64,000 nt of DNA from an uncultured Acidobacteriota bacterium (GTDB lineage: Bacteria > Acidobacteriota > Thermoanaerobaculia > Gp7-AA8): assembly GCA_963741955.1 (NCBI GenBank), contig CAVUKB010000001.1, positions 160,001 to 224,000 on the forward strand, in the 5' to 3' direction. The stretch's first letter is position 1, and the number at the start of each line of letters is the position of its first letter. Of this stretch, positions 28,262 through 46,230 are shown piece by piece. The position numbers were made by a program, and so were the translations under genes. Below the pieces are notes generated by a model. The model worked only from the letters and a program-made list of their open reading frames with translations. It was not told where the DNA came from and made no database searches.

Positions 28262-28950
28262 CGACTTTCGGGGTTGCCCCTCACCCTTCCCTCTCCCCGA
28301 ATGTCGTTCCTCGGCTGAAGACATGACCCCGGACGGGGAGAGGGTGCGTCCCGCCGAGCGGCGCGGTCATCGCGTTGGCGGCTCGGCGAAGGCCGGCCTG
28401 GATTGCACGATCTTCGGATTCGGCTCTCGGGGTCGCCCCTCACCCTTCCCTCTCCCCGAATGTCGTTCCTCGGCTGAAGACATGACCCCGGACGGGGAGA
28501 GGGGAGGCCGCGCGAGTGGGAGAGGGTGATGCTTCGTGGGGAACGGGGCTCAAAGTTCCGGACTGGGGATGGTTCGGGGTCCATCGCCTCAATCCCGCCC
28601 GGCGTACGTATGTTCCGCTCGACTCTGCGGTCGCGTTCGTCGCTCCCATCGGCGAAGGCCGGCCTGGATTGCACGATCTTCGGATTCGGCTCTCGGGGTC
28701 GCCCCCTCACCCTCCCCTCTCCCCGAATGTCGTTCCTCGGCTGAAGACATGACCCCGGACGGGGAGAGGGGAGGCCGCGCGAGTGGGAGAGGGTGATGCT
28801 TCGTGGGGACGGGGCTCAAAGTTCCGGACTGGGGATGGTTCGGGGTCCATCGCTTCGATCGTGCCAGGCGTACGTATATTGCCGCTCGACTCTGCGGTCG
28901 CGTCCGTCGCTCCCATCGGCGAAGGCCGGCCTGGATTGCACGATCTTAGG
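28262..28950. repeat. Cluster of CCCTCACCC..CCTCTCCC..GGGAGAGGG palindromic repeats (left part, split by the phage element)
   Basis: Cores at ~28278, 28437, 28704; long duplicated linkers; the cluster continues at 46094-46230. Confidence 0.85.
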
Positions 28951-29001
28951 TGTGAGCGCGCGTTTCGTTTGGCAAAATTTTGCGTTTCGTTTGGCAAAAA
29001 A
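28951..29001 (+). promoter_or_regulatory. Element end with two tandem putative transposase-binding sites
   Basis: GCGTTTCGTTTGGCAAAA repeated with a 22-bp period (cores at 28961 and 28983) right after TGTGAG. Confidence 0.8.
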
Positions 29002-29168
29002 TACTATTGTTGAATTTCGCCCGTCGGGGGAGGCGCGGCGCTGATGCGAATAACAGCGTTCCCGGCCAGCGAGCTGGCCCGGCGGCATGGCCGCCCAGCC
29101 GAGGGCGGTTCCAATATTCACCATGGCCGATGAGCTCCGCCGCTCACCTGGGTCGAGGCGATGCGCCC

Positions 29169-29402
29169 CTACAAGATAACGACCCGAAGCTGCTGGGCGG
29201 GGATGCCGGAGAGTGAGGAAATGCGGTCCGAGGCGGCGGCGACGAGAGCGGATCGGATTTGGCCGACGGTGTCGATCGCGACGGAGAGAGTCAGATGCGC
29301 GTGGAGGCCGGCGTCGCTCGTGGCGGCGGTCATTCGGACGGTCACGGTCTCGCCCGCGGACGCGAACGCGACGTCCTGGATGACGCAGATCGCCGTCGTC
29401 AT
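29169..29402 (-). CDS. Small phage hypothetical protein
   Basis: MTTAICVIQ.. start overlaps the upstream stop; last gene of the late operon. Confidence 0.5.
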   Translation of the reverse strand: MTTAICVIQDVAFASAGETVTVRMTAATSDAGLHAHLTLSVAIDTVGQIRSALVAAASDRISSLSGIPAQQLRVVIL

Positions 29403-29920
29403 CGGCCGGCTCCGTGGAGGCACTGGATTGCGGTGATCCGATATTCGGGGCCCGGCCCGGATCCGGAGGCGGGATCGCAGCAGATGAACGACCCCACCCC
29501 GAGCGCCGTCGTCAGAATGTTGCCCGCGAGGGCTCCGTCGTAGATGACCGTGCCATTGGACGAGGAAAACCGAATGTACCAGGTCGATCCGCTCTGGTAT
29601 GTTTCGATCCGGACCTTCGCCGCCTTCGTGCCCGCAATTACACCCTCGCTCAAACAGGCGAGCCCATCCAGCCCGGTGTCGACGACCGTCGCCAGTCCAC
29701 CGGCCGTCTCGCGCTTCACAAATTGCAAGTGATCACCGGAGGCGACATCGTCCGTGCCCTTGTAGTTGTACGCGAGGCGAACGAATGCACCGACTCCGGT
29801 CGAGTAGATCGCGTCTTCGATGTTTCCGGTGCCGTCGAAGAGCCCCACGATGACGAGCGTGCCCGCGGGACGGAAATACCCGTTGTTACCTAGGCTCGAT
29901 GTCGAGAGCGTGAGTAACAT
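29399..29920 (-). CDS. Phage tail-associated protein, probably the frameshifted C-terminus of the upstream tail protein
   Basis: Beta-rich sequence; overlaps the upstream ORF by 35 nt next to a CCAGGGGAATATG G-run. Confidence 0.5.
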   Translation of the reverse strand: MLLTLSTSSLGNNGYFRPAGTLVIVGLFDGTGNIEDAIYSTGVGAFVRLAYNYKGTDDVASGDHLQFVKRETAGGLATVVDTGLDGLACLSEGVIAGTKAAKVRIETYQSGSTWYIRFSSSNGTVIYDGALAGNILTTALGVGSFICCDPASGSGPGPEYRITAIQCLHGAGR

Positions 29921-32453
29921 ATTCCCCTGGCGTCGCTTGCTGCCACCCAGCTTTCGTCGGCCCGGCGAAGGATGCCTGTAGCCTGACGGTCGGAGTCATG
30001 TACGCGGACCAAAAAATCGCGGTGCCGAACTGGTTCGGCGCGACGATGCCCTTCGCGCCGGGCGTGGTGAGCCCCGGTTGCACCTGCCATGTCCAGTCGG
30101 GCTCCGGAGAATACACCGCGGAGTAGCTTCCGGACTTGTGAGGACCTTCGAGGTTGCTCGCGAACGCCACGGCTGCGACCTCGAAATTGATAGTCACCGT
30201 GCCGGATCGGTCGTATCCAATCGCGCGGTCGGTGAGCGGCTCGAGCTGGAACGGAGTCGCCTCGGCAATCGATCGAGCGTCCACGGACGCTGCGACCTGT
30301 AGCGAACCCGATGCGAAGTCGTAGATCCGGTGCTGCGTCGCATATTTGAACTTCTGACCCTCGATCCATTGGAGCTCCCGGAACGGTACCGCGCCTGTTG
30401 TGGGTTTCGCGAACCGCCAATAGCGGTGTGCGCCCGGAGGCATCCATTCGATCGTCGCGTATCCGGGTTGCCGGTCGTAGTTCTTCGTCGTGATCCCCGT
30501 CCATGCCGCACCATCGTCAGACCAGGAGATCGCCGCGAGGAAGCCGGCCGCCGCCGTGTAGGCTCGGCACGACACGAATTCCTTCGCGTTTCCGGCGCCG
30601 AGATCGATCTGCACGTAGGATGCACCGGACGAATTCCAGGTGAAGGCATTCGTCGCGGGGTCGCCGTCGTTGACGGCCGACGGGGTGAAGAGCGAGCATC
30701 CGGAGGAGCTCCAGTATGCCGCGGACCAGAACTGCTCGATCCGATCGTAGGGCGCAGTCCACCAGGCCGTCTTTCCGTCGGCCGAGACGAACGGGCCGAG
30801 GACCGCAGGCGGCGTCTGGATCACGTCGACGGCGGCCGGATTGATCGTCACTCCGACCGATTTCCCATACCTCCCGACGAGATACGCGGTGATCTCATAG
30901 TTTCCGCCGTTGTTCACGGGGTCGATCAGCACCGGCGAGCTCGCGGCGGTCGTGATGAGCCGAGCCTCGCCTCCGTCGACCGCAGACCAGATCTCGACAC
31001 CGGTGAGCCAGGCGTAATTCGGGAGGTCGAACGAGACGCGGGCCCGCGCTCTCGCGACCCCGTCACCATCCACGTATAGCTCCGGAGCGAAGGCGAGATT
31101 CGCGACGTCCGGCGGATCGTCAGACGGCGACGGAATGGAGCTCGCAATTTTCCCGGGATCAGCGACCACGGCGTCGGAATAGCAGGCGGCGGAGTACTCG
31201 AGGAGGGAGACGTTCGCGGTCACGTTCGGCTGGCGATTGCGCGCCCACACTAGAAAGTCCTGCGCGGCAATCCCGCGGCGCGTTACCGTCTGTTGCACGC
31301 GCGCACCGATCGGCTGATCGGCTGTCGCGAGCCATCCGGCCGCGAGCCGGAAATCGAACTGCAGGCGGTTCAGATAGTAGATCGCGAGCCGGCGGGCTTG
31401 CGATCGCGAGCGGATCCAGGGGAGCTGGTAGACCACAGGCCGTCGCTCCTCCGTCCCCGCCGTGACTGCCGCCGTCTCGACGGACTCGAAGTCGCGGGTC
31501 AGCGCGTTCGCCTCGTCGGTGAACCAGACCTCGACGTAGTTCGGCCGCTGGGTCGGATCTTCCCGTGCCCCAGAATCCGAATCCTTGATGAGGTCCCCGT
31601 CGGAGTAGATAGCGGCGACGGCCTGCGGCCGGTCGAGCCAGAGCCGCCACTGATTCCCTTGGTAAAAGTGATAGCCGCCCATGAGGAGCCCGAACGTCTT
31701 CTGCCAGTCGCTCGCCGATGTTGCGTCCTGCACCGCGACGTGCGACGCGTATCGCGGCTTTCCGCCCACGACCTCGTCGCAGACGTCTGCCGCGTCAATC
31801 CAGTCCTGGGTGACGAGACGCGAGGCGTCGAGATTCTTCCCCTCTGCATCGAGGTGCCAGTCGTAGTCCTGCAGGGCCGTGTTCTCGCTGTAACCGACAA
31901 GCATTGATCGGAGGTCGAGCACCTTCCGGCCTCGGATCGAAATATCGATCGTTGGGAACTCGGGCCAGAAGTAGCTGATGATCCCGAGCCAGACGACGAG
32001 GTAGGCGATCCCGTCGAGCGTCTCCGCCCAGCTCGCATCCACGGCCGCGAGATTCGGATCGGCCGTCTGGCCGGCGGCACCGCGGTAGGTCCAAATCCTG
32101 AGACGCGAGGCGGGGAAGGTCGCGTAATCCTTCTTGTTCACGAGGATCGACGTGAACGCATCGATCTCACCACGACCGACCGGCATCACCGCCCAGAGAG
32201 AATTCGTGGCCGAGGGATTCCCAAAGGTGTAGAGGGGATTCGAGATTGGGATCGTGTGCTTGCCGTAGTAGATCGGGACGGGCCCGCTCGCACCGCCGAT
32301 CTGCGTCTCGCCCTTCGTGATCGTATGCGCCGTGCGGTTGGTGACGAGCGGATGCGTGACGGTCGGAGTGGTCGGCACGTCCCCGCCGAGGTTCGGCGGC
32401 GTATAGAACGGCGGAGGAGGCGCCGGCCCGCGAACGATGCGCCCGCGAGACAT
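29886..32453 (-). CDS. Phage tail tip/host-specificity protein (lambda J/GTA-like) with FN3-like and F5/8-type C-like domains
   Basis: PVPIYYG, IRGRKV, AADVCDE, RSQARRLA; VNDGD..YVQIDLG..SDDG..RYWRF discoidin-like motif. Confidence 0.8.
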   Translation of the reverse strand: MSRGRIVRGPAPPPPFYTPPNLGGDVPTTPTVTHPLVTNRTAHTITKGETQIGGASGPVPIYYGKHTIPISNPLYTFGNPSATNSLWAVMPVGRGEIDAFTSILVNKKDYATFPASRLRIWTYRGAAGQTADPNLAAVDASWAETLDGIAYLVVWLGIISYFWPEFPTIDISIRGRKVLDLRSMLVGYSENTALQDYDWHLDAEGKNLDASRLVTQDWIDAADVCDEVVGGKPRYASHVAVQDATSASDWQKTFGLLMGGYHFYQGNQWRLWLDRPQAVAAIYSDGDLIKDSDSGAREDPTQRPNYVEVWFTDEANALTRDFESVETAAVTAGTEERRPVVYQLPWIRSRSQARRLAIYYLNRLQFDFRLAAGWLATADQPIGARVQQTVTRRGIAAQDFLVWARNRQPNVTANVSLLEYSAACYSDAVVADPGKIASSIPSPSDDPPDVANLAFAPELYVDGDGVARARARVSFDLPNYAWLTGVEIWSAVDGGEARLITTAASSPVLIDPVNNGGNYEITAYLVGRYGKSVGVTINPAAVDVIQTPPAVLGPFVSADGKTAWWTAPYDRIEQFWSAAYWSSSGCSLFTPSAVNDGDPATNAFTWNSSGASYVQIDLGAGNAKEFVSCRAYTAAAGFLAAISWSDDGAAWTGITTKNYDRQPGYATIEWMPPGAHRYWRFAKPTTGAVPFRELQWIEGQKFKYATQHRIYDFASGSLQVAASVDARSIAEATPFQLEPLTDRAIGYDRSGTVTINFEVAAVAFASNLEGPHKSGSYSAVYSPEPDWTWQVQPGLTTPGAKGIVAPNQFGTAIFWSAYMTPTVRLQASFAGPTKAGWQQATPGEYVTHALDIEPR

Positions 32454-32842
32454 CAGGAGACATCCTCGATGAGCTGGACGTCGAGCTTCCACAGATCCGC
32501 CTCGAAATGAGACGGAACGAACCCTTTTTCCGCGAGATACCAGACCGAATACCTCGAGCGAGCTCCTGCTGAGGTGAACGTTATCGCCGCTCCGTTCGCG
32601 GGCGCCGCCGCGAATGTGATCTGGTCCTCGCCCTCCGGCCCCGCGCCGGCCGTCAGCACGACTCCGGTCAGCACGCCCGCCACATAGACGGACGGGGCGT
32701 CGACCTCCTTCGCAGGGAGGTAAAACACCGTCGTCACTCCGTCACCGGTTCCGACGACGCCATCCGAGACAGGCAACGTCCAGAAGTCGAAGAATGAGAA
32801 CTTCGTCGCGCGGTTCGCGAGCCAATGCTGCCAGAGGTGTAA
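32453..32842 (-). pseudogene. 5'-truncated DUF2460-like distal tail protein
   Basis: FSFFDFW..GTGDGVTTVF..ITFAAAPANGAAIT..LIE; no start codon, fused behind the protease gene. Confidence 0.65.
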
Positions 32843-34151
32843 TCGTCGATCGCAATCCCGGCGGCGCGAGCCCCCGCGAGGGCGAGTGGAGCTGCGCGGC
32901 CTCGGGGTCGATCGCGACTTCCTTTCCCGCAACCCTTACCGTGCCGCCCACCTGGCCGGCCTGCACCGGAGGCGCCTCCGGCGCCGGATCCGTCCCCCGC
33001 GCCTGGGCGCGCGGGAGCTCGTCGGCCATCTTCGAGATGACCTCTTTCGCGTGCTCGATCCCGTGCTTCTTCGCGAGCTGCCTGACCCATGGTTCTTTCG
33101 CCGGCGTCACCTTCGGCCGGTTGGCGGCGATGAGCGCGTCGAGCTGCTCCTCCGCGGACTTCGCGGAGAGTTGCGCGAGCTCCGCCTTCGCCGCATCGCG
33201 CTCTGCGATGACGGCGTCGTGCTCCTCGCGCGTGACGACGCCCGCCGGCGAGCGGAGCTCGATGAGCTTCGCCTGAACCGTCGCGAGGTCCGCGTCATCC
33301 TCGATCTCGAGCAGCTCGAGCACCTCGGCCGATGCAACCGGGAGCTCGACGGCTCCGGCATCGTCAGGCTCTGATTTCGCGGTCTGCATCAGCACTTCGG
33401 CGATCGTCGCCGGAGACCCGTCGGATTTCGCCGCGCCGACCTCGAAGAGCATCTGATCGCCGTCCGGCAGTGCGTCGATAACCCGCTGAACAGCAGCCTT
33501 CAGCTCGCTCAGCGTCGTGGTGACTGGCAGCCCCAGCATGTACTGCAGGCGTTCGATGATCTCGTCCATCCCGTTTCCTCCCTTTGCCTTGATCGTCTTC
33601 ATTCGCGCGACCGCCTTCGCGGCGATCTGTTCGTAGAGCTCCGCCTGGTTGTGCGATGCGGGGAGATTCGTGAGAGCCAGCGAGAGCAGAGCCCGGATCC
33701 TCATAGTCTCGGGGTCGTAGAGGTAGACCGGCGAATGGTAGCGATACTCGCCGGAGCGGACCATCTCCGCCGCGCGATCGTTCCACTCGATGGACTTCGC
33801 GATCAGTCCCGCCGTCCCGCCCGCGACGAGTTCCCCTATGAACCCCGCGGCTGGCGCAATCTCGCCGGTGTGCGTCTGGTGCTCGTAATCGATCGGGATC
33901 TTGACGCCCCGGTCACTAAACCCGCCGACGATCTCCTTCTGGCTCGCCGCGTCGGTGACGTAGGTCCCGTGGTCGTTCTCGTAAGTCGGGAACGGGAACA
34001 CAAGGAGCTCGGACGGCAGCCCGTCTGCACCCGCTTTCGCCCCCTTTCGGCGGATCTCGACCGCCTTACCGACGAGCACGGCCAGCCCCGAGCCGTCCAG
34101 ATCCACAGAACCCGCCTTATGTCGTGCTATTTTTTGCGATCGCCCCTTCAT
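32742..34151 (-). CDS. Mu-like prohead protease I/scaffold (3' end disrupted)
   Basis: IPIDYEHQT..APAAG, EWNDRA..EYRYHSPV, ALTNLPA; in-frame internal start MDEIIERL at 33569 with AGGAGG RBS (gpZ-like scaffold). Confidence 0.88.
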   Translation of the reverse strand: MKGRSQKIARHKAGSVDLDGSGLAVLVGKAVEIRRKGAKAGADGLPSELLVFPFPTYENDHGTYVTDAASQKEIVGGFSDRGVKIPIDYEHQTHTGEIAPAAGFIGELVAGGTAGLIAKSIEWNDRAAEMVRSGEYRYHSPVYLYDPETMRIRALLSLALTNLPASHNQAELYEQIAAKAVARMKTIKAKGGNGMDEIIERLQYMLGLPVTTTLSELKAAVQRVIDALPDGDQMLFEVGAAKSDGSPATIAEVLMQTAKSEPDDAGAVELPVASAEVLELLEIEDDADLATVQAKLIELRSPAGVVTREEHDAVIAERDAAKAELAQLSAKSAEEQLDALIAANRPKVTPAKEPWVRQLAKKHGIEHAKEVISKMADELPRAQARGTDPAPEAPPVQAGQVGGTVRVAGKEVAIDPEAAQLHSPSRGLAPPGLRSTITPLAALAREPRDEVLILRLLDVACLGWRRRNR

Positions 34152-34307: not shown

Positions 34308-35585
34308 TCACTCTTTCCTCCCCGCCCGGCTGAACACGAGCAGCCCGTTCCTCTCCCGCCGTTCGATACCCTTCCAGTCGCTGGGAGATTCGGGCGACGA
34401 TCTGTAGATCGTGCGGAGCCGCAACCAACCTTCGGCCGAGCGTTCGAAGTAGATCGCGACGATCTTCTTTTTGTCCTCGATCGTGTAAATCCCGAGGTAG
34501 CGTTTGATGTAGTAGGGAGCTCCGTCCGGGCGGTTTCGTCTCACGTACCAGACCTCGGCCGGATTCTCGAGAACGTGCTGGATGAGCGGGAGCACGATGC
34601 CTCGCTCAGCGCGCGCGGCCGGCGAGAGCTGCTCGCCCGATGATGCGTATCCGGCGAGATGCAGAAAGGTGTCTTCATTGACGCGCACGCCGTCGGACGC
34701 ATAGTCGACGAACCAGGCCCCGGTCGCTCCCTCACCGATGCCTGTCGCCTCGCGGAAGGCGTTCCAGTCTGCAGCGCGATCGCCGCGAAAGGGCGACCCG
34801 AGGCGCGGAGGTGAATCCGGCGGCAACGTGTCGAGTGACGCGAGTCCATAGTCCGCCGCCGTCTTCATCGGGATCTCGGGGCCGAGGTCCGCGAGCGCTT
34901 TCGCGAAGAACCGGTCATCCGCCGCCATGACGTTCTTCGGCGCGAAATCGAACCCCGGATCCGGCAGGATCTCGCGCCCGTCGATCACCGGGCCGAGTTT
35001 TGGGTTTTTCTCCCCGTGCTCGTAGAGCTTCCCGCTCTCGCCCGCCTGCTCCGCTGTCAGCGATGTCACGTTGTAATGGCGTTCGTTGTGGTGATTCGGC
35101 GGATAGATGTGATCCCAGATCGGGTCATCGTGGCGCGCGACCAGGCCCTCGAGCTGCCGGCAGATCGCGCTGGTCCGTCCGTCGTGCGGCCCGAGCGGAT
35201 ACTGCCAATAAGGGCGCTCGTCGAGGACGTCGGGATCGCTCAACTGCTGATAGCGCCCGGCCGCGGTCGCGGTGGCGATCGCGTTCTGGTGGATAAGCTC
35301 GAGCCGCTGGGGCGACAGGATCGTCCCACCCTGGGCATCGACGATCTCGCCCAGGTGATCCGCGAAATCGCTCTTCGTCATACCGCTGGCCAGCGCCTCC
35401 TCGACTAAACGATTCGCCTCGAGCAGAGACGAATAGCGCTGCAAGCCGGTGATCGTGAACGCTCTCGGACGGGCTTCCGGAATGAGCGAATAGAAGTTGT
35501 CCGCGACCATCGGCGAGCGCTTCCGCTGAAAGAGGAGCGCCTCCTGGAAGGGCTTGAGGACCTTGCGGACCGCGGGCGTCGTCAT
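34308..35585 (-). CDS. MuF (gpF) minor head protein with a C-terminal PBECR-like nuclease extension
   Basis: RAFTITG, RLELIHQN..AGRYQQ..PYWQY..DGRT, YPPN, PDPGFDF; extension VLENPAEVW..KRYL..RNGLLVFSR. Confidence 0.82.
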   Translation of the reverse strand: MTTPAVRKVLKPFQEALLFQRKRSPMVADNFYSLIPEARPRAFTITGLQRYSSLLEANRLVEEALASGMTKSDFADHLGEIVDAQGGTILSPQRLELIHQNAIATATAAGRYQQLSDPDVLDERPYWQYPLGPHDGRTSAICRQLEGLVARHDDPIWDHIYPPNHHNERHYNVTSLTAEQAGESGKLYEHGEKNPKLGPVIDGREILPDPGFDFAPKNVMAADDRFFAKALADLGPEIPMKTAADYGLASLDTLPPDSPPRLGSPFRGDRAADWNAFREATGIGEGATGAWFVDYASDGVRVNEDTFLHLAGYASSGEQLSPAARAERGIVLPLIQHVLENPAEVWYVRRNRPDGAPYYIKRYLGIYTIEDKKKIVAIYFERSAEGWLRLRTIYRSSPESPSDWKGIERRERNGLLVFSRAGRKE

Positions 35586-37126
35586 GCCGACTCCTCCGCC
35601 ACGTCGCCCGCGCCCATTGCTTCCGCGACCGCCATTGCCTGCGCGAGGATCTCGCCGTGGCGCGCCGAGTCGAGCTGGTCTACGCTCTCCCACAGCCGGT
35701 CGATCGCCTCGTCGAGCGTCTCTGCTCCGCGGACGAGCTCGAGGATCTTTTGAGTCTGCTCGCGGTTCGCGATCGTCCCGAGCTCGAGGACGAGGGCGGC
35801 GACATCCTCCGCCGTTTGGAGCTTTGGCTTCTTCGGCCCGCTCGCCGCGGCCGTACCGGTCCGCCTCTTCGCGGCGCCGAGCCCCGCGGGCGGCGCCGGA
35901 GCGGTCGCCTCGACCGTGCGCACCTGAAACACGTCCTCGATCTGCGAGGGGTCGATGGCTCGGCCCACCGAGGCGAGCGCCTCGTTTACGATCACGTAGA
36001 CTTGAGACGTCTTCGTGAGATCGGCCGGCGGCGCTGCATTGATGCGGAAATTCGGGATCTCTCCGCTCTCGACCTGGTCCCATCCCCGGTTGAAACCCCA
36101 CCACACGGCGACGACCTGTTCCTGCACGCTCTCGGCAATCTGCCCAGCGACGGCTTCGATGTTGTCGTTCGCGACTTCTTCGGCGTGATTGCCAGCGAGC
36201 GTGCCCGTCCCGCTCTTCGCCTCTGAGTTGAGCACGTGCCCGTTGATCAACTTCGTGATCGCTTCGTCGGATGCGGAGATGATCGCCTGGTAGAGCGACG
36301 TCGTGCCGTAGCGCTGCGCCTCCTGGAGTTTGACCTCGGTACCGGCTGGGAATGCCGCCCGCGCGTTCGCGGCGAGCCCTGTGATTGCTTCGAGCACCGA
36401 GTCGCGCGATTCGGCGCGGTCGAAGAACGCCCAGATCATCGGGTTCCCGTAGGCGTTCGCAAAGCGCATGAGCCATTCCCAGGAGGAATGTTTGAAGAGC
36501 CAGTACCAGGCGATCTTCCTCCACAGTCCGCGCTCGGTGAGCCGGCCGTCGGAGAGTCCACCCGAGTGGAAGACGAACCCTCGAGGGTTCACAGGCTCGC
36601 CGGCGGACGGACTCGCGATCGTGCGGAGTCGCAGCTCCCTCGTCGTCGGATCCTGACGCCAGCGCGGAGCGTCGACGACCTCCCACCCGGAGACCTTGTA
36701 GTCACGCGACCAGAGGATCTCCGGAGCGACGAATGGATAATGCTCACCGAAAACGAGGTGATACCGGAGACCGGAAAACGTGCGGAAGCCGTTCAGCATC
36801 GCGCTCACGTCCTCCGCGTCCTTCTTCGCGCCGGCGGAATCGTCGAACGGCTCGATGGACCAGTCGAGCTTCGAGACTGCGGACGCGAGATTGCGATACG
36901 ACGAGAAGACGTGCGCGTCCTCCAGGAGCTTCTTCGCGACGAGCATCTGTTGCTCGAGCGCAGCGTTGCCGCGCAGGACTCGCGCGAGGAACTCGGGGGT
37001 GAGCGTGCCGGTCGTGAGCCCCGCCCACGGATCGCGCACCCGTCCAATCTCCGCCTGCCGGTCCGGCGGGCGTTTGTCGAACGTGACGGTGTTGCCGAAA
37101 GCGTCGTAGAGGACCGTCTCAGCCAC
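35582..37126 (-). CDS. Mu gp29-like portal protein (DUF935)
   Basis: LTPEFLARVLR, DAHVFS, GLWRKIAWYWLFK..W..FANAYGNP, GTLAGNHAEEV. Confidence 0.88.
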   Translation of the reverse strand: MAETVLYDAFGNTVTFDKRPPDRQAEIGRVRDPWAGLTTGTLTPEFLARVLRGNAALEQQMLVAKKLLEDAHVFSSYRNLASAVSKLDWSIEPFDDSAGAKKDAEDVSAMLNGFRTFSGLRYHLVFGEHYPFVAPEILWSRDYKVSGWEVVDAPRWRQDPTTRELRLRTIASPSAGEPVNPRGFVFHSGGLSDGRLTERGLWRKIAWYWLFKHSSWEWLMRFANAYGNPMIWAFFDRAESRDSVLEAITGLAANARAAFPAGTEVKLQEAQRYGTTSLYQAIISASDEAITKLINGHVLNSEAKSGTGTLAGNHAEEVANDNIEAVAGQIAESVQEQVVAVWWGFNRGWDQVESGEIPNFRINAAPPADLTKTSQVYVIVNEALASVGRAIDPSQIEDVFQVRTVEATAPAPPAGLGAAKRRTGTAAASGPKKPKLQTAEDVAALVLELGTIANREQTQKILELVRGAETLDEAIDRLWESVDQLDSARHGEILAQAMAVAEAMGAGDVAEESA

Positions 37127-38825: not shown

Positions 38826-39454
38826 GCGGCACCTCCGAGCTGACGCTGACGGACCTCTTCGACCTTTGCGAGCACACGCCGGAGGAGCGGAGGATCGTCG
38901 CGGAGGAGCTGCTCGAGCTCCGCGCGCAGGATCTTGAGCGCGCGGTCGACGCCTCGCGTGACGGCGAGGCGCGTCCGCTCGCGCGCCGCGCTCGAGCTCT
39001 GCAGCTTTGCGGCCGCGACGACGGTCGAGAGCTCCTCGTCCGAGAGGGCTTTCGGCTTCCCGTTCTCATCTTCTCCGAGAAGCGACTCGAGGATCCGCGT
39101 ATTGAGGAGCTGCGAGACGGCCTCCTCGAGCGCGAGCACCTCGTCCTGGTCGGAGGTGCGGAGGAGCTTGGCCTTCTCGACGAGCATCCGCACCGCGCGG
39201 CGCTGGATCTCGAATTTGTAACCGTATCGCGCGAGCGCGCTGCGCGAGACGTGGTAGCCCGTACCGCGGAGCCGCTCGATCATCTCGTCGTAGGTCGGCC
39301 GCGGGATCTCGAGGAGCCACGAATCGATGAGCTGCGCGAGGCCGACGTGCAGCTCGACCGCCGGATGGCCGCGACGCGGCTTCCCGGCCGGCCGCTTGTC
39401 CGCCGGTTTCTTCGCCGCCGGCTTCCGGCCCGGCTTCTGCGCCGCTCGCGTCAT
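38822..39454 (-). CDS. Mu gp27-like (DUF3486) putative terminase small subunit
   Basis: TYDEMIERL...GYHVSRSALARY; directly upstream of the large terminase. Confidence 0.8.
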   Translation of the reverse strand: MTRAAQKPGRKPAAKKPADKRPAGKPRRGHPAVELHVGLAQLIDSWLLEIPRPTYDEMIERLRGTGYHVSRSALARYGYKFEIQRRAVRMLVEKAKLLRTSDQDEVLALEEAVSQLLNTRILESLLGEDENGKPKALSDEELSTVVAAAKLQSSSAARERTRLAVTRGVDRALKILRAELEQLLRDDPPLLRRVLAKVEEVRQRQLGGAA

Positions 39455-39735
39455 GCGGTGCGCTCCCGTTTCAGCGCACGGTGTACGCCCGCGAACCCGT
39501 CGCGCATCTGATCTGCCAGGTCGATCCGCTGCCGGACTTCGCCGAGCTGCTCACGCGTCGCGTATTCCTCGCGGATGTCGCGTGCGAGCTGACCCTGCAG
39601 CTGGAGGAGAGCATTTGCCACCTCGAGCTTCTCCTGTCGGAGTGTCGTCCGGATCGAGTAGACGAGGAGCGCGACGATGCCGTTGAGGAGCATCGTCGCG
39701 ATGAGCGAGGCGAGAGAGATGACCAGCGGCGTCAC
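39451..39735 (-). CDS. Phage membrane protein (Mu gp25/DUF2730-like position)
   Basis: N-terminal TM then coiled coil with YATREQL; GTG start overlaps the upstream stop. Confidence 0.55.
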   Translation of the reverse strand: MTPLVISLASLIATMLLNGIVALLVYSIRTTLRQEKLEVANALLQLQGQLARDIREEYATREQLGEVRQRIDLADQMRDGFAGVHRALKRERTA

Positions 39736-40046
39736 TGCGCAGCACCCCCGGCGCCGCGGCATTTCGCGAGCTCGCCCTGGAGGCGCGCGATCTTCTCCCT
39801 TAGCGCTGCATATGTCGCCGCGTCGAGCAGAATGCCATCGAACGGAGCGGCCTCGCCGGACGCGATCCAGTGGACGCGGACATCGACGGGCGTGACCGGA
39901 GCTGCGGCGACGATCGGGCCGCGGGCGCGGATCCGCATTGCCCCGCACCCGGCCGCGAAAGCGAGAACCAGGAGGAGACAAAGGGCGACCGAGGCCGCGC
40001 AGCGGCTACCTAAGAGCCGCTTCGATGTCTGACTTGCTGCGGTCAT
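39732..40046 (-). CDS. Putative o-spanin lipoprotein
   Basis: Lipobox LAFAAG-C; overlaps the upstream TM gene; start uncertain. Confidence 0.5.
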   Translation of the reverse strand: MTAASQTSKRLLGSRCAASVALCLLLVLAFAAGCGAMRIRARGPIVAAAPVTPVDVRVHWIASGEAAPFDGILLDAATYAALREKIARLQGELAKCRGAGGAAQ

Positions 40047-40209
40047 CGTCCTTTCTCTCCACCTCATTCGCGATTTCCGTGAGCGCCTCCGACACCTGCG
40101 TGTCGGTCTTCGCCGCGCGCCGCGCCGGATCAGAGTTCCCGCGGATCAGCATCAGGATCAGCGTCACGATCCCGCTGAGCAGAGCGACTACCGCGCCGAG
40201 AGTCGTCAT
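40006..40209 (-). CDS. Putative i-spanin-like membrane protein
   Basis: Single N-terminal TM followed by a charged helical region; overlaps the lipoprotein gene. Confidence 0.45.
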   Translation of the reverse strand: MTTLGAVVALLSGIVTLILMLIRGNSDPARRAAKTDTQVSEALTEIANEVERKDDDRSKSDIEAALR

Positions 40210-40727
40210 TTCGCCGCCCATGCGCCGGCTTCGCATACGTACCATGTCGAGCCTGCGCCGCCCTCGGTTCGCGAGTAGAACGAGCCCGTCGTGCATGCGC
40301 CCGACGGAGCTCCGGCTCCCGCGGTCCAGGACGGACCCGCAGATAGGGCGAAAGAATCAGAGATCGTTCCGCCGGTGACGTTCGCGCCTCCGGCAGATAC
40401 GTACAGGCCTCCGGCATCAACATCGAGACCACCGGTGGTGATCTCCAGCGCGTCGGTGACCAGTGAGAAGGCGTTCCCCTGGGTGCTCGTGATCTGCATC
40501 AAGTCGACCCAATGGCCAACCGGAAACTGAACGAATTGGTGTTGGTTGGTGATGCCGACGCCGCCGATCGTCACGTTCTGGCCGTTCAGGCTGGTGATGC
40601 TCAGAGTGGCGGTCGAGATCGAATCGACTGAGAGATTCTGCGAAACGCCCTTGCGCGTCTCGGTCCCGGCAGCAAGCGTCGCCGTCGTGAAGGTCAGGAG
40701 CAGGATGGCGATCAGTCGTCGTTTCAT
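40206..40727 (-). CDS. Exported protein with a fibre/tailspike-like C-terminal motif
   Basis: GAGGAG RBS; Sec signal MKRRLIAILLLTFTTATLA; C-terminal GAGAPSGACTTGSFYSRTEGGAGSTWYV..W. Confidence 0.65.
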   Translation of the reverse strand: MKRRLIAILLLTFTTATLAAGTETRKGVSQNLSVDSISTATLSITSLNGQNVTIGGVGITNQHQFVQFPVGHWVDLMQITSTQGNAFSLVTDALEITTGGLDVDAGGLYVSAGGANVTGGTISDSFALSAGPSWTAGAGAPSGACTTGSFYSRTEGGAGSTWYVCEAGAWAAK

Positions 40728-40739
40728 CGTGGTCTCCTC

Positions 40740-41060
40740 TCAGGCGTGGCTCTTGTTGAGTGCGACGACGATCGTGCATTGCGCATCGGCAAAGAACCGC
40801 AATTGCTGCGATAGCAGCCAGCTCGAGTTGTTCACCTGAAACACGTCGCCGGCACTCATCGGCATGTCGTTCGCGTCCGCGTCGGTGCCGTCGTTGTTGC
40901 GGTAGACGGTTCCTGCCGTCACCTGAATCTCGGCATCGCTGCATCCGTCCGGAAGTGCGGCGAGGCCGCAGAGATCCGCGAGGGTCGTCGTGCCGGCGAG
41001 TGCAGCGGCCGAGGTCGTGTAGGTGCCGAGGCCGATCGTGGCCGCCTGGACGATGTGCAT
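40740..41060 (-). CDS. Phage hypothetical protein
   Basis: GGAGG RBS; operon-like spacing. Confidence 0.6.
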   Translation of the reverse strand: MHIVQAATIGLGTYTTSAAALAGTTTLADLCGLAALPDGCSDAEIQVTAGTVYRNNDGTDADANDMPMSAGDVFQVNNSSWLLSQQLRFFADAQCTIVVALNKSHA

Positions 41061-41062
41061 TG

Positions 41063-41152
41063 CTATTTCCTCCGCCGGCGCGCGCGCACCATCGCGACGC
41101 AGAGGAGCGCGATCAGCGCGAGCAGGATGTATTCGGTGATCAAGTAGGGCAT
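41063..41152 (-). CDS. 29-aa single-TM peptide (MPYLITEYILLALIALLCVAMVRARRRRK)
   Basis: GAGGTG RBS; fills the gap between neighbours; TM followed by a basic tail. Confidence 0.5.
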   Translation of the reverse strand: MPYLITEYILLALIALLCVAMVRARRRRK

Positions 41153-41156
41153 CCCT

Positions 41157-41555
41157 TCACCTCGGGTCTTCGGCGGTTGGCAAATGCGGCGGCGCGAGCT
41201 GCGGCGCCGGCTCCCGGTTGATCTCGAGCGCCTTCTCCCACCAGGCCCGCGTCGGCTTTTCCTTCATCGTTGCGTGGCCGTATTCGTCTGCGAGCAGGAT
41301 GGCGGTCCGCTCGCCGAGCCATTCGCCGTGCGGGCCGCGGTCCGTCACGCGCACTGTGTCGACGACGCGAGATAGATCGAGCGTCACGATCGCGTAGTGC
41401 TTCCCGCACTCCTGGACTCGGAGAATCTTTGCGCCGTCGCGCCAGGGCACGGTCCATCCGCGATGGGAAGGCCGCGGCGGCCCGATCTCACTCGCTCCCA
41501 GCACGCACGCGATCAGGCTCGCGACGGCGACGACGGCGCAAAGGTGTTTTCGCAT
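41157..41555 (-). CDS. Exported phage hypothetical protein
   Basis: N-terminal hydrophobic signal-like segment; 4-nt gap from the upstream gene. Confidence 0.55.
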   Translation of the reverse strand: MRKHLCAVVAVASLIACVLGASEIGPPRPSHRGWTVPWRDGAKILRVQECGKHYAIVTLDLSRVVDTVRVTDRGPHGEWLGERTAILLADEYGHATMKEKPTRAWWEKALEINREPAPQLAPPHLPTAEDPR

Positions 41556-41559
41556 CGCG

Positions 41560-41799
41560 TCAGTTTCCGCCGAGTGACGCCTTCACCGCGCTCCGACCAG
41601 CGATGTACTTCGCGCCGGGCCAGGCCATGAGGACGAAGGTCAGCACCTTGTCGAGGACGCTGACGATCGCCGCGATCGCAGGGCTCGCCGTGACCGTCCC
41701 AACATCGACGTTGCCCGCCATGCCGAACAGGTGCAGCACCGCGACGATGAAGATGACGACGACCGTGAGAAACTCCGTGCTCTTCCATCCAGGCTTCAT
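41560..41799 (-). CDS. Putative holin
   Basis: AGGAG RBS; MKPGWKSTEF start, two TM segments, basic YIAGRSAVK tail. Confidence 0.6.
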   Translation of the reverse strand: MKPGWKSTEFLTVVVIFIVAVLHLFGMAGNVDVGTVTASPAIAAIVSVLDKVLTFVLMAWPGAKYIAGRSAVKASLGGN

Positions 41800-41885
41800 G
41801 CTCTCTCCTTTGAAGTCCCGCCGAGCGGCCCTGATCCGCCCGGCGGGCGAACAACAACATCGTGCGCGCATCGCGCTCTGGAAAT

Positions 41886-42525
41886 TCAATCGATTGATGC
41901 GAACGGGATCACGCGCGGCGTCCCGGCCCTCCGGTCGGTCACCACCGCGAATCCATAGATCTGCTGCGAATACGCTGCGACGCTCCCGGGGAACCCGACG
42001 CCAGAGCCCTCGGTGAGCTCGATCCGCCCGACGCTCACCCGCGTCGCGAGCTCGACGAATGTGAGCTCGCCGTCGCCGGCCACGTCGAAACTCTCGGTCC
42101 CGGCCAACTGGTTGTCGTGGTCATAGACTCGCGCGGTGACGACGCTCGGCGTCCCCTCGTCGAAGAAGGCCAGATGGGTGACCCAACGGTCATCGTTCTG
42201 GATGATCCGCACGTCCTGCGGATCCGGGAGGTGAGCAGTCAGCGGTGGCACTTCGAAGGAGATTGACAGGCCGCCTTCGACGAATCGCATGAGCGAGGTC
42301 ACGCGCGCGGAGCCTTCGAGAATCTTCACCTGGGTGATCCCGGCGCGCGGGCCGCAGACGTATCGTCCGAAGTCCTCCGCGATCGCCGAGCCGTTCGGCG
42401 GGATCGTGATCTGCCAGGATTCGGACCAGCACCCGGACGGCGCGATCGTCGCGCCATCGGTGGTCGTGATCAGCAGATCCGTGTCGTAGAGATCCGTGTC
42501 GGCGTAGACCAGGCGCGGGGCGCTG
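41886..42525 (-). pseudogene. 5'-truncated beta-sandwich surface-protein-like gene
   Basis: Protein-like sequence from APRLVYADTD to YGFAVVTDRRAGTP; upstream codons look like the antisense of the + strand ORF. Confidence 0.45.
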
Positions 42526-43017
42526 GAAAATCTGGACGAAAAATCAACGCGAGGAGCTCTCGGACCTCGAAAGGACGCCAGGAGCGGAGATTCGCCCACG
42601 GAGTGGAAAAGGCGTCGCCGCGGTCCCGGGGGACCGCTCTCGGCTCAGTCAGTTCGCCGCCGATTGGAATTCGCGCAGTCGCTCACGCGCCGCCGGCGAG
42701 AGTCTCCCGCCGGCGACAGCGGCTCTTCGTCATTTCGTGGCCCTCGCGGCCTCAATCTCATTGAGCTGAAACTGCTGATAGTCGATCTCGAGCTTCGCGA
42801 TCTCGAGCGAGTCGCCAGCTTCGTCCTGGGAATGGCTGAAGCGTATTCGGCGGGCGTCGCCGGATACGCGAGCGGCCATCATTCACATCAATCGAATTCA
42901 CCGAAGCCGGACTGGCGCGTCTTCGTGGAAGTCCGGCCAGCGCCTCCGGATGCCCCGGCGGAGCAGCCGTTGGCAGAGCAGGAGTCGATCGAGGCGAGCA
43001 TTTCGAGCGCGCCATAG
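42525..43017 (+). pseudogene. 5'-truncated early-operon gene fragment
   Basis: Frame stays open from ~42508 (LENLDEKSTRG..) to TAG at 43017, with no RBS-supported start. Confidence 0.4.
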
Positions 43018-43106
43018 ATCCCTCTGCGAAACCGCGTGCTCGCCCGAGTGCGCGGTCGTCCGCTGGTGGCTCGGCGGGCCTGATGAGCAGCCCAGGAGAT
43101 GACGCT

Positions 43107-43376
43107 ATGGAATCGCTCACACCACAGGCAGCACGGGAGGTTGAGGTGCGAAGGATCGTCGCCGGCGTATGCGGACGATCGGTCGTCGGCACGACGGCAG
43201 GGACGCGGATCCGTCGAGATCTCGGGCTCACGGTCGACCAGGAGCGCGAGATCGCATGGCAGCTCTCGAATGCGTTTGGGATCGATCTCCGTGCGATCGA
43301 GTGGGCCGACCTCGTGACAATCGGGGACCTCCTTAATCGTGTCGATATCGCGATCGAACGGGAGCGATTCGCATGA
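43107..43376 (+). CDS. Acyl-carrier-protein-like protein lacking the Ppant serine
   Basis: AGGAG RBS; gapless by-eye alignment to ACP, with DLGLTVDQ in place of DLGADSLD, plus FGIDL and TIGDL. Confidence 0.65.
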   Translation: MESLTPQAAREVEVRRIVAGVCGRSVVGTTAGTRIRRDLGLTVDQEREIAWQLSNAFGIDLRAIEWADLVTIGDLLNRVDIAIERERFA

Positions 43377-43645
43377 CCGCGCTCGCGCAGCTGCATGTCG
43401 CAGTACTGGCGGCGACTTGCGCCCGCGAGGACGGACGTCCTCAGTCGTTCATCGACGTCATCAATATCCTCGCCGCCGCGGATCCGAGCGACATCGCTGC
43501 GGCAGTACTGGTTCTCGAGAGGGCAGGCTTCGTGCGCGTATTCGACCGCGACGGGCGCACTTGGGTGCGGCCGCAACGGACCGCCTGGATCGTGATCGCT
43601 GCGCACCTGAAACTCGCCAGAAGAGGCACGGAGTACGCGGCATGA
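43373..43645 (+). CDS. Phage hypothetical protein (winged-helix-like)
   Basis: ATGA overlaps at both ends; LVLERAGFVR wHTH-like motif. Confidence 0.6.
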   Translation: MTALAQLHVAVLAATCAREDGRPQSFIDVINILAAADPSDIAAAVLVLERAGFVRVFDRDGRTWVRPQRTAWIVIAAHLKLARRGTEYAA

Positions 43646-44040
43646 GCGGGTCCTGGCTCGAGCGTGGAAGCGTCGATCGGGCGCATGCAGTCAGCGTGGT
43701 CAAGATTATCTGGCGCCGTCTCGGCCGGGCCTCTGCGATTTCGATGCACGCGATCCGCCGTCAGACCGGTATCCCGACTCGCGAGATTCAATCGATCGTG
43801 AAATGGCTGGTCGAAGAGCGATCTCTCCCGATCGGCACGTCGCCCGCGCGGCCGTGGGGTTACTACTGGATCTCGACCGAAGACGAGCGACGAAAGGTCC
43901 GAAACCACTTCATCCGGCGCGCTCTCTCGACCCTCGAGCACGCGAAAGCCTATGACCGGGATTCGATCGTGGCCCCGCTGGTCGGACAACTCAAGCTCAT
44001 TTCGGAGGAGGGCGAGCATGAGTCGCAAGAAATACGGTGA
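43642..44040 (+). CDS. Winged-helix DNA-binding phage protein
   Basis: AISMHAIRRQTGIPTREIQSIV..LPIG..GYYWISTEDE. Confidence 0.7.
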   Translation: MSGSWLERGSVDRAHAVSVVKIIWRRLGRASAISMHAIRRQTGIPTREIQSIVKWLVEERSLPIGTSPARPWGYYWISTEDERRKVRNHFIRRALSTLEHAKAYDRDSIVAPLVGQLKLISEEGEHESQEIR

Positions 44041-44713
44041 CCGTGAGCGTCGGATCGCGATCGAGATCTACGAGGCGACCGGAAGCCACTTAAAGGCAGC
44101 AGCGGCCGCCGGAACCTCGCCGTGTTGGGTATATGAGCTCCTGCGCCGGGAGGGCCGCGTGAAGCGTGCGTGGCCAACCTATACCGCGCGGCAAGCGCAT
44201 CGGGCGGTGGAGCTGTATCGCTCTGGTCTAAGCACATCTCTCGTGGCACAAGAGATCGGCGGCGTGTCACGTGAATGGGTGCGCGTGCAGGTCGTGGCTG
44301 CTGGAATCCTTCGTTCGAAATCTCACGCGATGCGGCTGCGTATGGCTAGGGAGAAGGGCCGAGACTACGAGCAGCTGCGGCGAGAGGCTCTCGAGCTCGC
44401 GACAGAGCAATTGATGTCCGTGCGTGCCATCGCAAAGTATCTCAGCGTCTCGACGAACTTCGTGAAACAGGCGATCCCTCGGGAGCTGCGTTGCAATCCG
44501 AAGGACGCAACGCTGCGCCGCAAGTGGCAGGCCTTCCTTCCCGACGTCGAGGCCCGCCGGGAGCGGCGTGAGCGGGTAATTTTGATGCGGCGCGGAGGTG
44601 CGACCTACGCGCGGATCATCGCCGAAACGGGTGTCTGCCAGGCGACCGTCTACCGTTATCTCTCCGAGGCCGGGCTCACCGGCTCGCTGCGCGACCAAAG
44701 GAGGATGAGGTGA
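44018..44713 (+). CDS. Multi-HTH DNA-binding protein
   Basis: GGAGG RBS; four HTH-like segments (AAAAAGTSPCWVY, VAQEIGGVSREWVR, IAKYLSVSTNFVK, IIAETGVCQATVY). Confidence 0.75.
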   Translation: MSRKKYGDRERRIAIEIYEATGSHLKAAAAAGTSPCWVYELLRREGRVKRAWPTYTARQAHRAVELYRSGLSTSLVAQEIGGVSREWVRVQVVAAGILRSKSHAMRLRMAREKGRDYEQLRREALELATEQLMSVRAIAKYLSVSTNFVKQAIPRELRCNPKDATLRRKWQAFLPDVEARRERRERVILMRRGGATYARIIAETGVCQATVYRYLSEAGLTGSLRDQRRMR

Positions 44714-45573
44714 TTACTTCTGCGCAAATTCGCATGCTGCATATCGCCCAGCGGCAGCTCGAGATTCCGCGTGAGCACTACGAGGCGATCATGCTCGAGG
44801 CAGCCGGGGTGACGAGCTCAAAGGCGCTCGACAACGCGGGCTTCGACGCGGTGATCCGGAGGTTCGAGGAACTTGGATTCCGCAACACGGCCCGTCATTC
44901 GCGGCGTCCATATCATCCAGCCGAGCCAATCACTCATGCCCAGCAGCAGTTGATCGAGGGACTCTATCTCGAGCTCGGATGGGACGACCGCGATCGGCAG
45001 ATCGGCTTCAACCGCCGCCAATGCCGGAAATCCTGGCCACAGACCCGCCGCGACGCGAACCGGGTGATCGAAGGACTGAAGGCGATCCGCGCAAGATCGA
45101 GCCGGTCAGCCGGCCTGGGCCTCCTGGAGCTTCTTGTCGTGATCGCGGTGCTTGGGCTTCTTTTATGCGGCGCCGCGGTGGGGAAGGATCGCACGGCCAC
45201 CCCGCCCGCCCGTACCGTCATCCCGTACCTCGAAGCGTCCACTCATCCGTATCTGGCGACTGAATTCTCGGCCATCCGTGACGCCGAGAATTACATCGAG
45301 TTGCTCCCACTCCAGGAGGCGGTTACGGCCGTGATCACGCGGTGGGACGATCCCGACGATACGTCTAACACCTTCATCGTCCTGCACCGGACGAATCCCT
45401 GGCCAGCTCACGCAGCCCGAATCCCCTTGCGTGTTGGGGTATTGGATTTCGATTCCCCTGCCGCCCTGTTTAACACGCGCGAATGGTACGCTATGCAGGG
45501 CTACAAGACCGCGATGGCAACCGGGGTCGGCACGCGCCGTTACCTGCTCGTGATCGACCAGGGACCGCTCTAA
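44710..45573 (+). CDS. GemA (Mu gp16/DUF1018)-like regulator fused to a prepilin-like TM domain
   Basis: QIRMLHIAQRQL..Y..GVTSSKAL..FEELGF..ANRVIEGLKAI, followed in frame by RSSRSAG-LGLLELLVVIAVLGLLL. Confidence 0.78.
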   Translation: MITSAQIRMLHIAQRQLEIPREHYEAIMLEAAGVTSSKALDNAGFDAVIRRFEELGFRNTARHSRRPYHPAEPITHAQQQLIEGLYLELGWDDRDRQIGFNRRQCRKSWPQTRRDANRVIEGLKAIRARSSRSAGLGLLELLVVIAVLGLLLCGAAVGKDRTATPPARTVIPYLEASTHPYLATEFSAIRDAENYIELLPLQEAVTAVITRWDDPDDTSNTFIVLHRTNPWPAHAARIPLRVGVLDFDSPAALFNTREWYAMQGYKTAMATGVGTRRYLLVIDQGPL

Positions 45574-45703
45574 GGAGCGGTCACCGATCGCCGCCGGTAG
45601 TGCTCGGGCCGCCTGCTGGCATCGTGATCCCTCCGGCCTCTCTTCTTCGTCGACGTTTACTGTAGATTCACCCCTGTTTTTGCACAATTCCTTGTGCACT
45701 TTC

Positions 45704-45830
45704 ATGTCCGCTGATCAGTGCACAGCGATCGGGAGCTCGCCAGGGGTATCCTCTTGAGGCGCGGTAGTTTGCGCCGATGTCCGCTGATCGGACGCGCTTG
45801 CGCGAAAAGCCCGCAAAATGTCCGCTGATC
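45704..45830 (+). repeat. Three 13-bp direct repeats ATGTCCGCTGATC near the element end
   Basis: Exact copies at 45704, 45777 and 45818; palindrome TGCACAA-TTCC-TTGTGCA at 45681-45698. Confidence 0.75.
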
Positions 45831-45946
45831 GGCCCCGGATGATGACGGTAGGTGAGGCGTAGATGGGGCTTAATTGTCGGGTCTAGCGCGACTTACGGTC
45901 TCCATTAGGCGGGTTCGGCGATGCCTCGGGTCCGGCCGTCGCCCGT

Positions 45947-46093
45947 TTTGCGTTTCGTTTGGCAGAAAGATCGTCGGCGCGCGTCGGCGCGCGGCGTAAC
46001 CGCTGAACGTGGCTGAGGTTACGACGAGCGGCGATCCGTCCCGCCATGTCCCCTGTTATCCCGGCGTTTTGCCAAACCATCCGCAAACTCACA
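45947..46093. promoter_or_regulatory. Element end with putative transposase-binding sites
   Basis: TTTGCGTTTCGTTTGGCAGAAA at 45947-45968; terminal inverted site (reverse complement TTTGCGGATGGTTTGGCAAAAC) at 46066-46087, then CTCACA. Confidence 0.8.
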
Positions 46094-46230
46094 TTAGGCT
46101 TCGACTTTCGGGGTTGCCCCTCACCCTTCCCTCTCCCCGAATGTCGTTCCTCGGCTGAAGACATGACCCCGGACGGGGGGAGGGTGCGTCCCGCCGAGCG
46201 GCGCGGTCATCGCGTTGGCGGCTCGGCGAA
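46094..46230. repeat. Right part of the CCCTCACCC..GGGAGAGGG repeat cluster
   Basis: 46102-46230 is nearly identical to 28262-28390. Confidence 0.85.

Follow-up and report, generated by a model that had tools for sequence, protein, structure and literature searches.

The stretch of DNA analysed here, a 64-kb window of the genome of an uncultured Acidobacteriota bacterium (G000:C1:160001-224000, hereafter the window, from an assembly that is 99.1% complete and comprises 16 contigs), contains a segment that is bounded like a transposing phage and lacks any recognisable transposase. Given this combination, we considered how such a segment arose, and whether it could still move. The element occupies positions 28951-46093 of the window (17,143 bp), begins with TGTGAG and finishes with CTCACA. 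In our reading, it is very probably a 17-kb remnant of a ~41-43-kb transposing Mu-like siphophage that was disarmed by two internal deletions.

We delineated the ends by scanning 1.5-3 kb around each of them for TG..CA arms joined to a 5-bp direct repeat, and a single pair emerged, at 28951 and 46093. The left boundary reads TTAGG at 28946-28950 followed by TGTGAGCGCGCGTTTCGTTTGGCAAAA, and the right boundary reads TTTTGCCAAACCATCCGCAAACTCACA at 46067-46093 followed by TTAGG at 46094-46098. The terminal inverted arms are imperfect, with 16 of 22 bases matching, and the termini are of the 5'-TG...CA-3' kind seen in Mu-like phages. The element sits inside a tandem array with a period of 267 bp, so the doubled pentamer could have been a chance repeat. 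On both sides, the flanking sequence is part of a dispersed, hairpin-rich repeat family with more than 130 matched places in the host genome, which forms long tandem arrays on contigs C1, C4, C5, C6, C7, C10 and C13, covers 28255-28950 and 46094-46560 on the two sides of the element, and recurs on C5 at ~1,093,600-1,096,600; no Rfam family covers these flanking tandem repeats. A second array, with an 89-bp period, was observed at 46334-46560. Uninterrupted units in the window (~28405 and ~28672) read ...GGATTGCACGATC-TTCGG-ATTCGGCTCTCGGGG..., and those on C5 (~1,094,6xx) read ...GCACGATC-TTCGG-CTTCGACTTTC..., with TTCGG followed by (A/C)TTCG, while the interrupted unit reads ...GCACGATC-TTAGG-[element]-TTAGG-CTTCGACTTTCGGGG. 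Since the pentamer is single in the paralogous empty units and double only around the element, the duplication proposed by the initial annotation of this locus, made without database searches, is real and not a feature of the flanking repeats. The doubled pentamer is the expected product of a 5-bp staggered cut, the size of duplication that characterizes Mu-type transposition.

Furthermore, both ends carry related short repeats. The 15-mer GCGTTTCGTTTGGCA occurs in three exact copies in the window (28960, 28982 and 45950), all less than 150 bp from an end of the element, and a further copy with three mismatches lies on the other strand at the right terminus (46070-46084). When up to three mismatches were allowed, five matches were found against 1.7 expected, a number that 5 of 100 shuffles also reached; the signal thus lies in the grouping of the three exact copies close to the ends of the element rather than in this looser count. 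On the tail side, the end (28951..28999, plus strand) consists of the TGTGAG terminus and two direct 18-bp repeats at 28960-28977 and 28982-28999, spaced by 22 bp. On the GemA side, the end (45703..46093, minus strand) consists of the terminal site at 46067-46093 (ending in CTCACA), an inverted copy of the site at 45947-45967, and four ATGTCCGCTG-type repeats. We regard the repeats at the ends as putative transposase-binding sites.

Subsequently, 24 open reading frames (ORFs) of the element were scanned with Pfam and PHROGs profiles. Late genes lie on the minus strand and point toward the left end, and early genes lie on the plus strand and point toward the right end, with gemA 520 bp from that end. 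The late arm contains a Mu-type head module, all five members of which scored above the Pfam cut-offs: the gp27-like small terminase TerS (38822..39454, minus strand; Phage_Mu_Gp27 E 4.1e-14, phrog_426), the terminase large subunit TerL (37119..38825, minus strand; GpA_ATPase E 3.8e-18, phrog_675 E 7.5e-81), the Mu-type portal protein gp29 (35582..37180, minus strand; Portal_Mu E 1.3e-55, phrog_113), a MuF-like (gp30) minor head protein with a C-terminal PBECR2 nuclease-like domain (34308..35582, minus strand; Phage_Mu_F E 2.6e-11, PBECR2 E 1.3e-9, phrog_220) and a gpI-type head protease/scaffold without its last ~30 residues (32871..34151, minus strand; Mu-like_Pro E 6e-46, phrog_328). In the early arm, GemA (44710..45573, plus strand; GemA E 2.9e-11, N_methyl E 7e-4) carries its domain in residues 1-129 (44.8 bits against a cut-off of 27). 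These results bear out the Mu-type head and early genes and the opposed orientation of the two arms described in the initial annotation. None of the 24 ORFs matched a transposase, AAA+ ATPase B, repressor, Gam, capsid, tube, tape-measure or Mor/C family. The list of missing functions given earlier thus stands for transposase, ATPase B, repressor, capsid, tube and tape measure, and no transposase surfaced inside the element that would have overturned it. Its remaining item, the endolysin, is likewise unrecognisable in the element; this absence is uninformative, as the ORFs scanned in the same late-arm stretch of two fuller relatives introduced below (three in G062, one in G061) contain no recognisable endolysin family either. 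Because the element lacks both the DDE transposase A and the AAA+ ATPase B, it is a remnant of a member of the Mu-like group rather than a functional member.

What a complete member looks like became apparent from searches with TerL. Among 50,697 phage records, 455 matched, all below 60% identity, and the best was only ~25% identical. In IMG/VR, two contigs alone carried a TerL of 50-51% identity, G061 (a provirus of 35 kb, carried on a 450-kb metagenome contig) and G062 (44 kb). Scanning the metagenome collection yielded these two again, and the search of the genome_contigs collection returned no relative. Among 400 other genomes of the host phylum, 11 had a TerL match at E <= 1e-20, and three of these (G008, G095 and G029) reached 41-45% identity, with G008 and G029 belonging to the same host family as the window genome. 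Another of the 11, G204, is flagged as unpublished and supports none of the results given here. The TerL of G095 (C33, 18084-19685) is 44% identical, and no other protein of the element or its relatives matches that contig; on this comparison, the G095 terminase appears to sit in a different phage background. The other two genomes contain complete prophages that are collinear with the element: G029:C75 49171-90443 (41,273 bp, duplication CATTC, arms matching at 19 of 22 bases) and G008:C69 26266-69086 (42,821 bp, duplication CCGCG, 17 of 22). The next-best chance end pairs in the scans of these two genomes had arms of only 14-15 of 22, and scans for 6-bp duplications gave chance-level arms alone (13-15 of 22).

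Both prophages contain homologues of the transposase, the B ATPase, capsid, tube and tape measure that the element lacks. Their gene order runs from a gpJ-like gene through the distal-tail genes, tape measure, tube, capsid, gpI, MuF, portal, TerL, TerS, a methylase and the late-arm genes, followed by the early arm with transposase A, ATPase B, early genes, (a helix-turn-helix protein) and GemA; the divergent arms and the position of gemA are the same in G008, G029 and G062. Pfam analysis of G061 and G062 identified Mu-type transposases of 720 and 743 amino acids (aa) with Mu-transpos_C, DDE_2, HTH_Tnp_Mu_2 and weak rve matches, a 350-aa AAA ATPase, Phage_tube_2 tubes and tape measures of 1258 and 1459 aa. 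Gam is present in G062 and was matched in neither G008 nor G029, and a LexA-like repressor (helix-turn-helix plus Peptidase_S24) is present in G061, the sole relative scanned for a repressor. The Phage_tube_2 tube, the long tape measure and the absence of sheath-family matches from both viral records (0/2) are consistent with a siphovirus-type tail in the lineage. The poorly sampled siphophage lineage suggested earlier agrees with these matches: the lineage is a little-sampled one, found in soil and in metagenome-derived genomes, in which the layout of B3 goes together with the 5-bp duplication of Mu and with transposase domains like those of MuA. In G062 (positions 1-10,697, L016), the distal-tail and gpJ-like genes are encoded on the other strand from the remaining late-arm genes, so that they and the tape-measure gene are convergent, and the first 7 kb of this contig are lower in G+C; the inversion of the first 10.6 kb may be a contig artefact or a real one.

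The ends of the relatives resemble those of the element. At the tail-side ends of the window element, G008 and G029, two adjacent ~18-bp sites spaced 22-24 bp apart are followed by AATA(A)CT. The gemA-side ends of these three and of G062 (at 44250) have one terminal site and then short CGGGAC/CCGGAC-type repeats, the window counterpart of which is the set of ATGTCCGCTG repeats. The G029 arm TGTGAGTTCGCGGAATCTTTGG resembles the window arm TGTGAGTTTGCGGATGGTTTGG; the left end of G062 was not found in our search. By this comparison, none of the cis features shared by the ends of the complete members is missing from the window element.

The relatives also allowed the two deletions to be placed. 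They are 25-55% identical to the element in protein, so the deletion sizes given here are estimates. At the first junction (32837..32870), gpI is homologous to its counterparts up to about residue 428 and then continues through ~40 unrelated residues instead of the conserved last ~30, its ORF running on to 32742. On the other side lies the 3' part of a distal-tail gene (32453..32836, minus strand), the 159-aa ORF of which matches the 195-aa G061 homologue by tblastn only from residue 33, equivalent to homologue residue 61, the first ~60 codons having been lost. Junction 1 was placed at ~32,837-32,870 because gpI homology ends and distal-tail homology begins there. The interval that it replaces measures ~12.0 kb in G029, 12.7 kb in G061 and 14.3 kb in G008, indicating a loss of ~12-14 kb that took the end of gpI, the major capsid, head-tail genes, the tail tube, the tape measure and the start of the distal-tail gene. 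The second junction, together with ~0.5 kb of sequence without assignment, lies at 42525..43023. There, the conserved first late-arm gene, encoding a 237-aa protein (41886..42524, minus strand), lacks ~45 N-terminal residues including the signal peptide found in all three homologues, and homology begins at residue 26, at about position 42,525. To the right, tblastx of 42,525-43,083 against G061 and G062 found no homology, and the first recognisable feature is a hammerhead ribozyme at 43,024. In G062 and G029, the equivalent interval is ~9.3 and ~8.7 kb long, respectively; by comparison with the relatives, the lost segment contained the repressor, transposase A, ATPase B and Gam along with further early genes, ~9 kb in all. 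Adding 12-14 and ~9 kb to the present 17.1 kb gives 38-40 kb, near the 41-43 kb of the complete relatives. Homology to full-length relatives thus breaks at the two positions, ~32845 and ~42525, where a doubly deleted prophage had been guessed to be joined. Retained genes are full length relative to their homologues (TerL 568 versus 570/600 aa, portal 532 versus 517/507, MuF 424 versus 416/416).

A metagenome-derived assembly can suggest such a structure wrongly, if a full-length prophage is collapsed or mis-joined. The element was found in one soil-metagenome run only, X1, which contains 96% of the sampled words and is probably the source sample of the assembly; runs X2 and X3 gave only partial matches of 31-40 letters, which have no bearing on presence or absence. 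The highly repeated flanks, and the fragmentation of the X1 Logan contigs at ~10x depth with two loose ends, would suit a collapse. These contigs were nonetheless assembled separately from the assembly's own assembler, and seven listed pieces of them, one with a 1-base gap, reproduce 28946-46126 without a differing letter. Record 2 (30558-32940) runs across junction 1, and record 7 (40452-46126) across both junction 2 and the insertion junction on the right. Depth varies little along the element, being mostly ~9-14, with a dip to 6-7 at 38.8-40.0 kb. Moreover, when 53 proteins of G061 and G062 were searched by tblastn against all 16 contigs (E <= 0.05), the missing genes were found on none of them, including eight contigs of 8.7-23.5 kb, and outside the element the only significant match was a helix-turn-helix protein on C10. 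We also considered the gap between Logan records 2 and 3 (32941-32974) as a break at junction 1; this was ruled out, since the alignment places the junction at ~32,840-32,870, within record 2. The gap contains a 16-bp palindrome and is one of several at ~10x depth. An assembly artefact is therefore very unlikely, and both suspected breakpoints are bridged by contigs, albeit contigs that are not independent of the assembly.

Several points nevertheless weigh against the reading of the element as a doubly deleted prophage. X1 is probably the assembly's own source, and its contigs therefore give no independent support. No listed piece bridges the left insertion junction, as record 1, which begins at 28946, opens with 26 letters that misfit the repeated flank. 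Loose ends are also present in two X1 contigs, at 33024 and 42548; they may be chance partial matches like those in X2 and X3, or a variant. The right border of junction 2 is known only to within ~0.5 kb, given the 25-55% identity of the relatives. Finally, placing insertion before deletion follows from parsimony and not from evidence.

With these reservations, we infer that the insertion came first and the deletions followed in place. A temperate transposing siphophage would have entered a single unit of a tandem repeat in the host by DDE transposition of the Mu type, producing the TTAGG duplication. Its layout would have been of the B3 type, with late and early arms transcribed away from a central control region and gemA next to one end. 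One internal deletion of ~12-14 kb would then have run from the end of gpI through the tape measure into the distal-tail gene, and another of ~9 kb would have removed the repressor, transposase A, ATPase B, Gam and neighbours, leaving 17.1 kb with both ends intact. On its own, the remnant is non-autonomous: it cannot transpose, replicate, build a capsid or tail, or repress.

We then asked whether it could be moved by others. In its structure the element resembles a mini-Mu, having both ends with putative transposase-binding sites and neither A nor B, and mobilisation in trans would be possible in principle, given the intact ends. The 17-kb form may have transposed to this site, or may still do so, through the transposase of an infecting or co-resident full-length relative, and the helper's headful machinery would package it together with adjacent host DNA. 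In favour of this, nothing that the full-length relatives have in common at their ends is missing from either end of the element, the two copies of the duplication are identical, no decay is visible in the retained ORFs, and engineered mini-Mu and mini-D3112 work in this way (PMC8705779). The genome searches point in the other direction. The element is single-copy: its end pattern in the host genome returned only its own two ends, and a whole-element DNA search returned itself and two short repeat matches. The same ends at other sites, as the initial annotation had envisaged, were likewise absent from the genome_contigs, viral_contigs and metagenome_contigs collections (0 matches each), scans from which the window's own record was possibly left out. 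A full-length helper, also envisaged, was not found in the host assembly, where Mu-transpos_C and DDE_2 profiles had no match (profiles that were silent in control genomes too, and hence were backed by tblastn with the relatives' A and B proteins, which found none at E <= 0.05) and where the element's own portal was the only match to Portal_Mu. Moreover, both deletions cut through genes, resembling accidents rather than a selected design. In Mu, the enhancer lies in the central control region; if it does so here as well, it has been deleted. We thus consider a still-mobile element improbable. The fuller form of this proposal, a live non-autonomous element on whose intact ends an infecting relative's transposase acts, replicating the 17 kb for headful packaging, is quite improbable. 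If it were true, each particle would carry ~24 kb of adjacent host DNA, and the element would mobilise one fixed part of the chromosome in a naturally occurring equivalent of laboratory mini-Mu-duction.

The intact TerS-TerL-portal-MuF block raises a further alternative, that the element is an evolved phage satellite or domesticated packaging module whose terminase, portal and ends were kept by selection. The truncation of gpI, the distal-tail gene and the first late gene at the junctions speaks against this, as does the lack of a capsid, an own regulator and an integrase or transposase, and no second example was found in the genome, viral and metagenome collections. Such an origin is extremely improbable, and the remnant of a twice-deleted prophage is the reading that we retain.

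The element was further compared with known systems. In phage Mu of Escherichia coli, the early arm runs inward from the end, whereas here it runs outward; Mu is furthermore a myovirus, and no match to the Mor/C family of activators was found here. The likenesses to Mu comprise the 5-bp duplication, TG..CA ends, the head module of gp27, terminase, portal gp29, gp30 (MuF) and gpI, and GemA; the relatives' transposases match Mu-transpos_C, DDE_2 and HTH_Tnp_Mu_2, and one relative has Gam. The uneven layout of the end sites, side by side where the late genes end and farther apart where the early genes do, resembles attR and attL of Mu. In its layout, the element resembles the B3-type transposable phages of Pseudomonas and the B3-like Leptospira prophages (PMC8705779): two opposite arms from a central regulatory region, gemA beside one genome end with the tail module at the opposite end, TG..CA termini, a full length of ~36-43 kb, and siphovirus-type tail genes (here found in the relatives). 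Divergent arms with gemA near one end are described there as typical of B3. The earlier proposal of an inverted early region of B3 type is therefore matched in layout and not in target duplication, which is 6 bp in B3 and 5 bp in Mu (PMC8705779) and 5 bp in the window, G008 and G029. The element differs from the B3-type group also in its TerL, only ~25% identical to anything in the phage collection, and in the loss of the whole transposition and control module from the window copy. With laboratory mini-Mu and mini-D3112, described as engineered tools in PMC8705779, the element shares the retention of both ends, the loss of lethal and structural functions and the need for A and B in trans. Those constructs were engineered and shown to transpose, whereas the element arose by two untidy natural deletions and keeps half a head module, and its movement is only hypothetical. 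We found no natural mini-Mu with both ends and a duplication and without a transposase in a literature search that left most of the older Mu literature outside its reach.

The hammerhead ribozyme at the start of the retained early arm is a separate feature of the locus, one that the initial annotation had missed. It is of type II with a complete core (43024..43096, plus strand) and matches RF02276 over the full model (1-66) with 55 bits against a gathering score of 37 (E 1.3e-8), showing the core CUGAUGA...GAAA and three stems. Its minimum-free-energy fold is a three-way junction, and the predicted self-cleavage would fall at a GUC site. The first early gene still present probably starts at ATG 43107, 10 nt beyond the end of the motif. 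Of the three relatives whose early arm was scanned, two have hammerheads at the equivalent place: G029 has two (63.7 and 55.4 bits; L035 8558-8623 and 8864-8935, minus strand), G062 has one of 39.8 bits between gam and the next gene (L017 3215-3291, plus strand), and G008 has none at the gathering threshold. Hammerheads flanking genes within long prophage transcripts have been described before (Perreault et al. 2011, PMC3088659), and the present ones resemble them in being type II, in lying between genes of a long phage transcript, and in occurring as clustered copies in G029; in the passages of that paper covered here, we found no link between prophage hammerheads and transposable phages. The early-arm hammerheads here and in two of three relatives are a possible case of ribozyme processing of the early transcript in a transposable phage.

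The remaining genes of the element add detail to both arms. The last late-arm gene before the left end (29399..29920, minus strand) encodes a 173-aa protein with no family and no homologue in the relatives. It is followed by an 868-aa central tail/host-specificity-like protein (29886..32492, minus strand; Phage-tail_3 E 1.2e-4, 22.4 bits, just below the 23-bit cut-off), with 31-36% identity to homologues in G061, G062 and G029 and 26% in G008. Small ORFs without a family (39451..41060, minus strand), assessed with Pfam/PHROGs and by comparison, take the place of a well-conserved N6/N4 DNA methylase that three relatives encode between TerS and their late-arm genes (G062 28097-28945, G008 50689-51498 and G029 64172-64987; 58-61% mutual identity), and are unrelated to it. 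Two small late-arm genes (41157..41889, minus strand) encode a 132-aa protein with a hydrophobic N-terminus, conserved in G062, and a 109-aa protein with hydrophobic segments. Neither matched a Pfam or PHROGs family, atlas searches with the 132-aa and 237-aa proteins gave no usable match, and the 132-aa and 109-aa proteins are possible lysis gene products. In the early arm, two small genes (43107..43645, plus strand), the first with a G062 homologue, precede a phrog_2113 protein (43675..44040, plus strand) conserved in G062, G008 and G029 and a 253-aa protein with a C-terminal helix-turn-helix (43952..44713, plus strand; HTH_23 E 5.2e-9). The latter lies directly upstream of gemA, as in G008, is 40% identical to the G008 homologue and is a possible regulator. 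The gemA ORF itself runs in frame into a pilin-like prepilin-type N-terminal methylation/transmembrane segment and a unique 135-aa tail; this C-terminal extension has no paralogue in the host genome or the relatives, and could be a fused moron or the result of a lost stop codon. Additionally, the MuF-gpI spacer (34219-34385) matches the host genome on C5 at ~1,097,300 (87% identity) and ~1,098,500 (73%), an indication that the prophage contains a unit of a host repeat.

Defective Mu-like prophages are common, and the remnant itself therefore changes little: it illustrates, neatly but without being unusual, how prophages decay in a phage group of which few members have been sampled. It provides a cleanly delimited case of how a transposable prophage is disarmed, in which the transposition-control module and the capsid-to-tail module were lost and the ends, the duplication and the junctions are mapped, and it comes with two complete reference prophages, those of G008 and G029, now delimited for the lineage.

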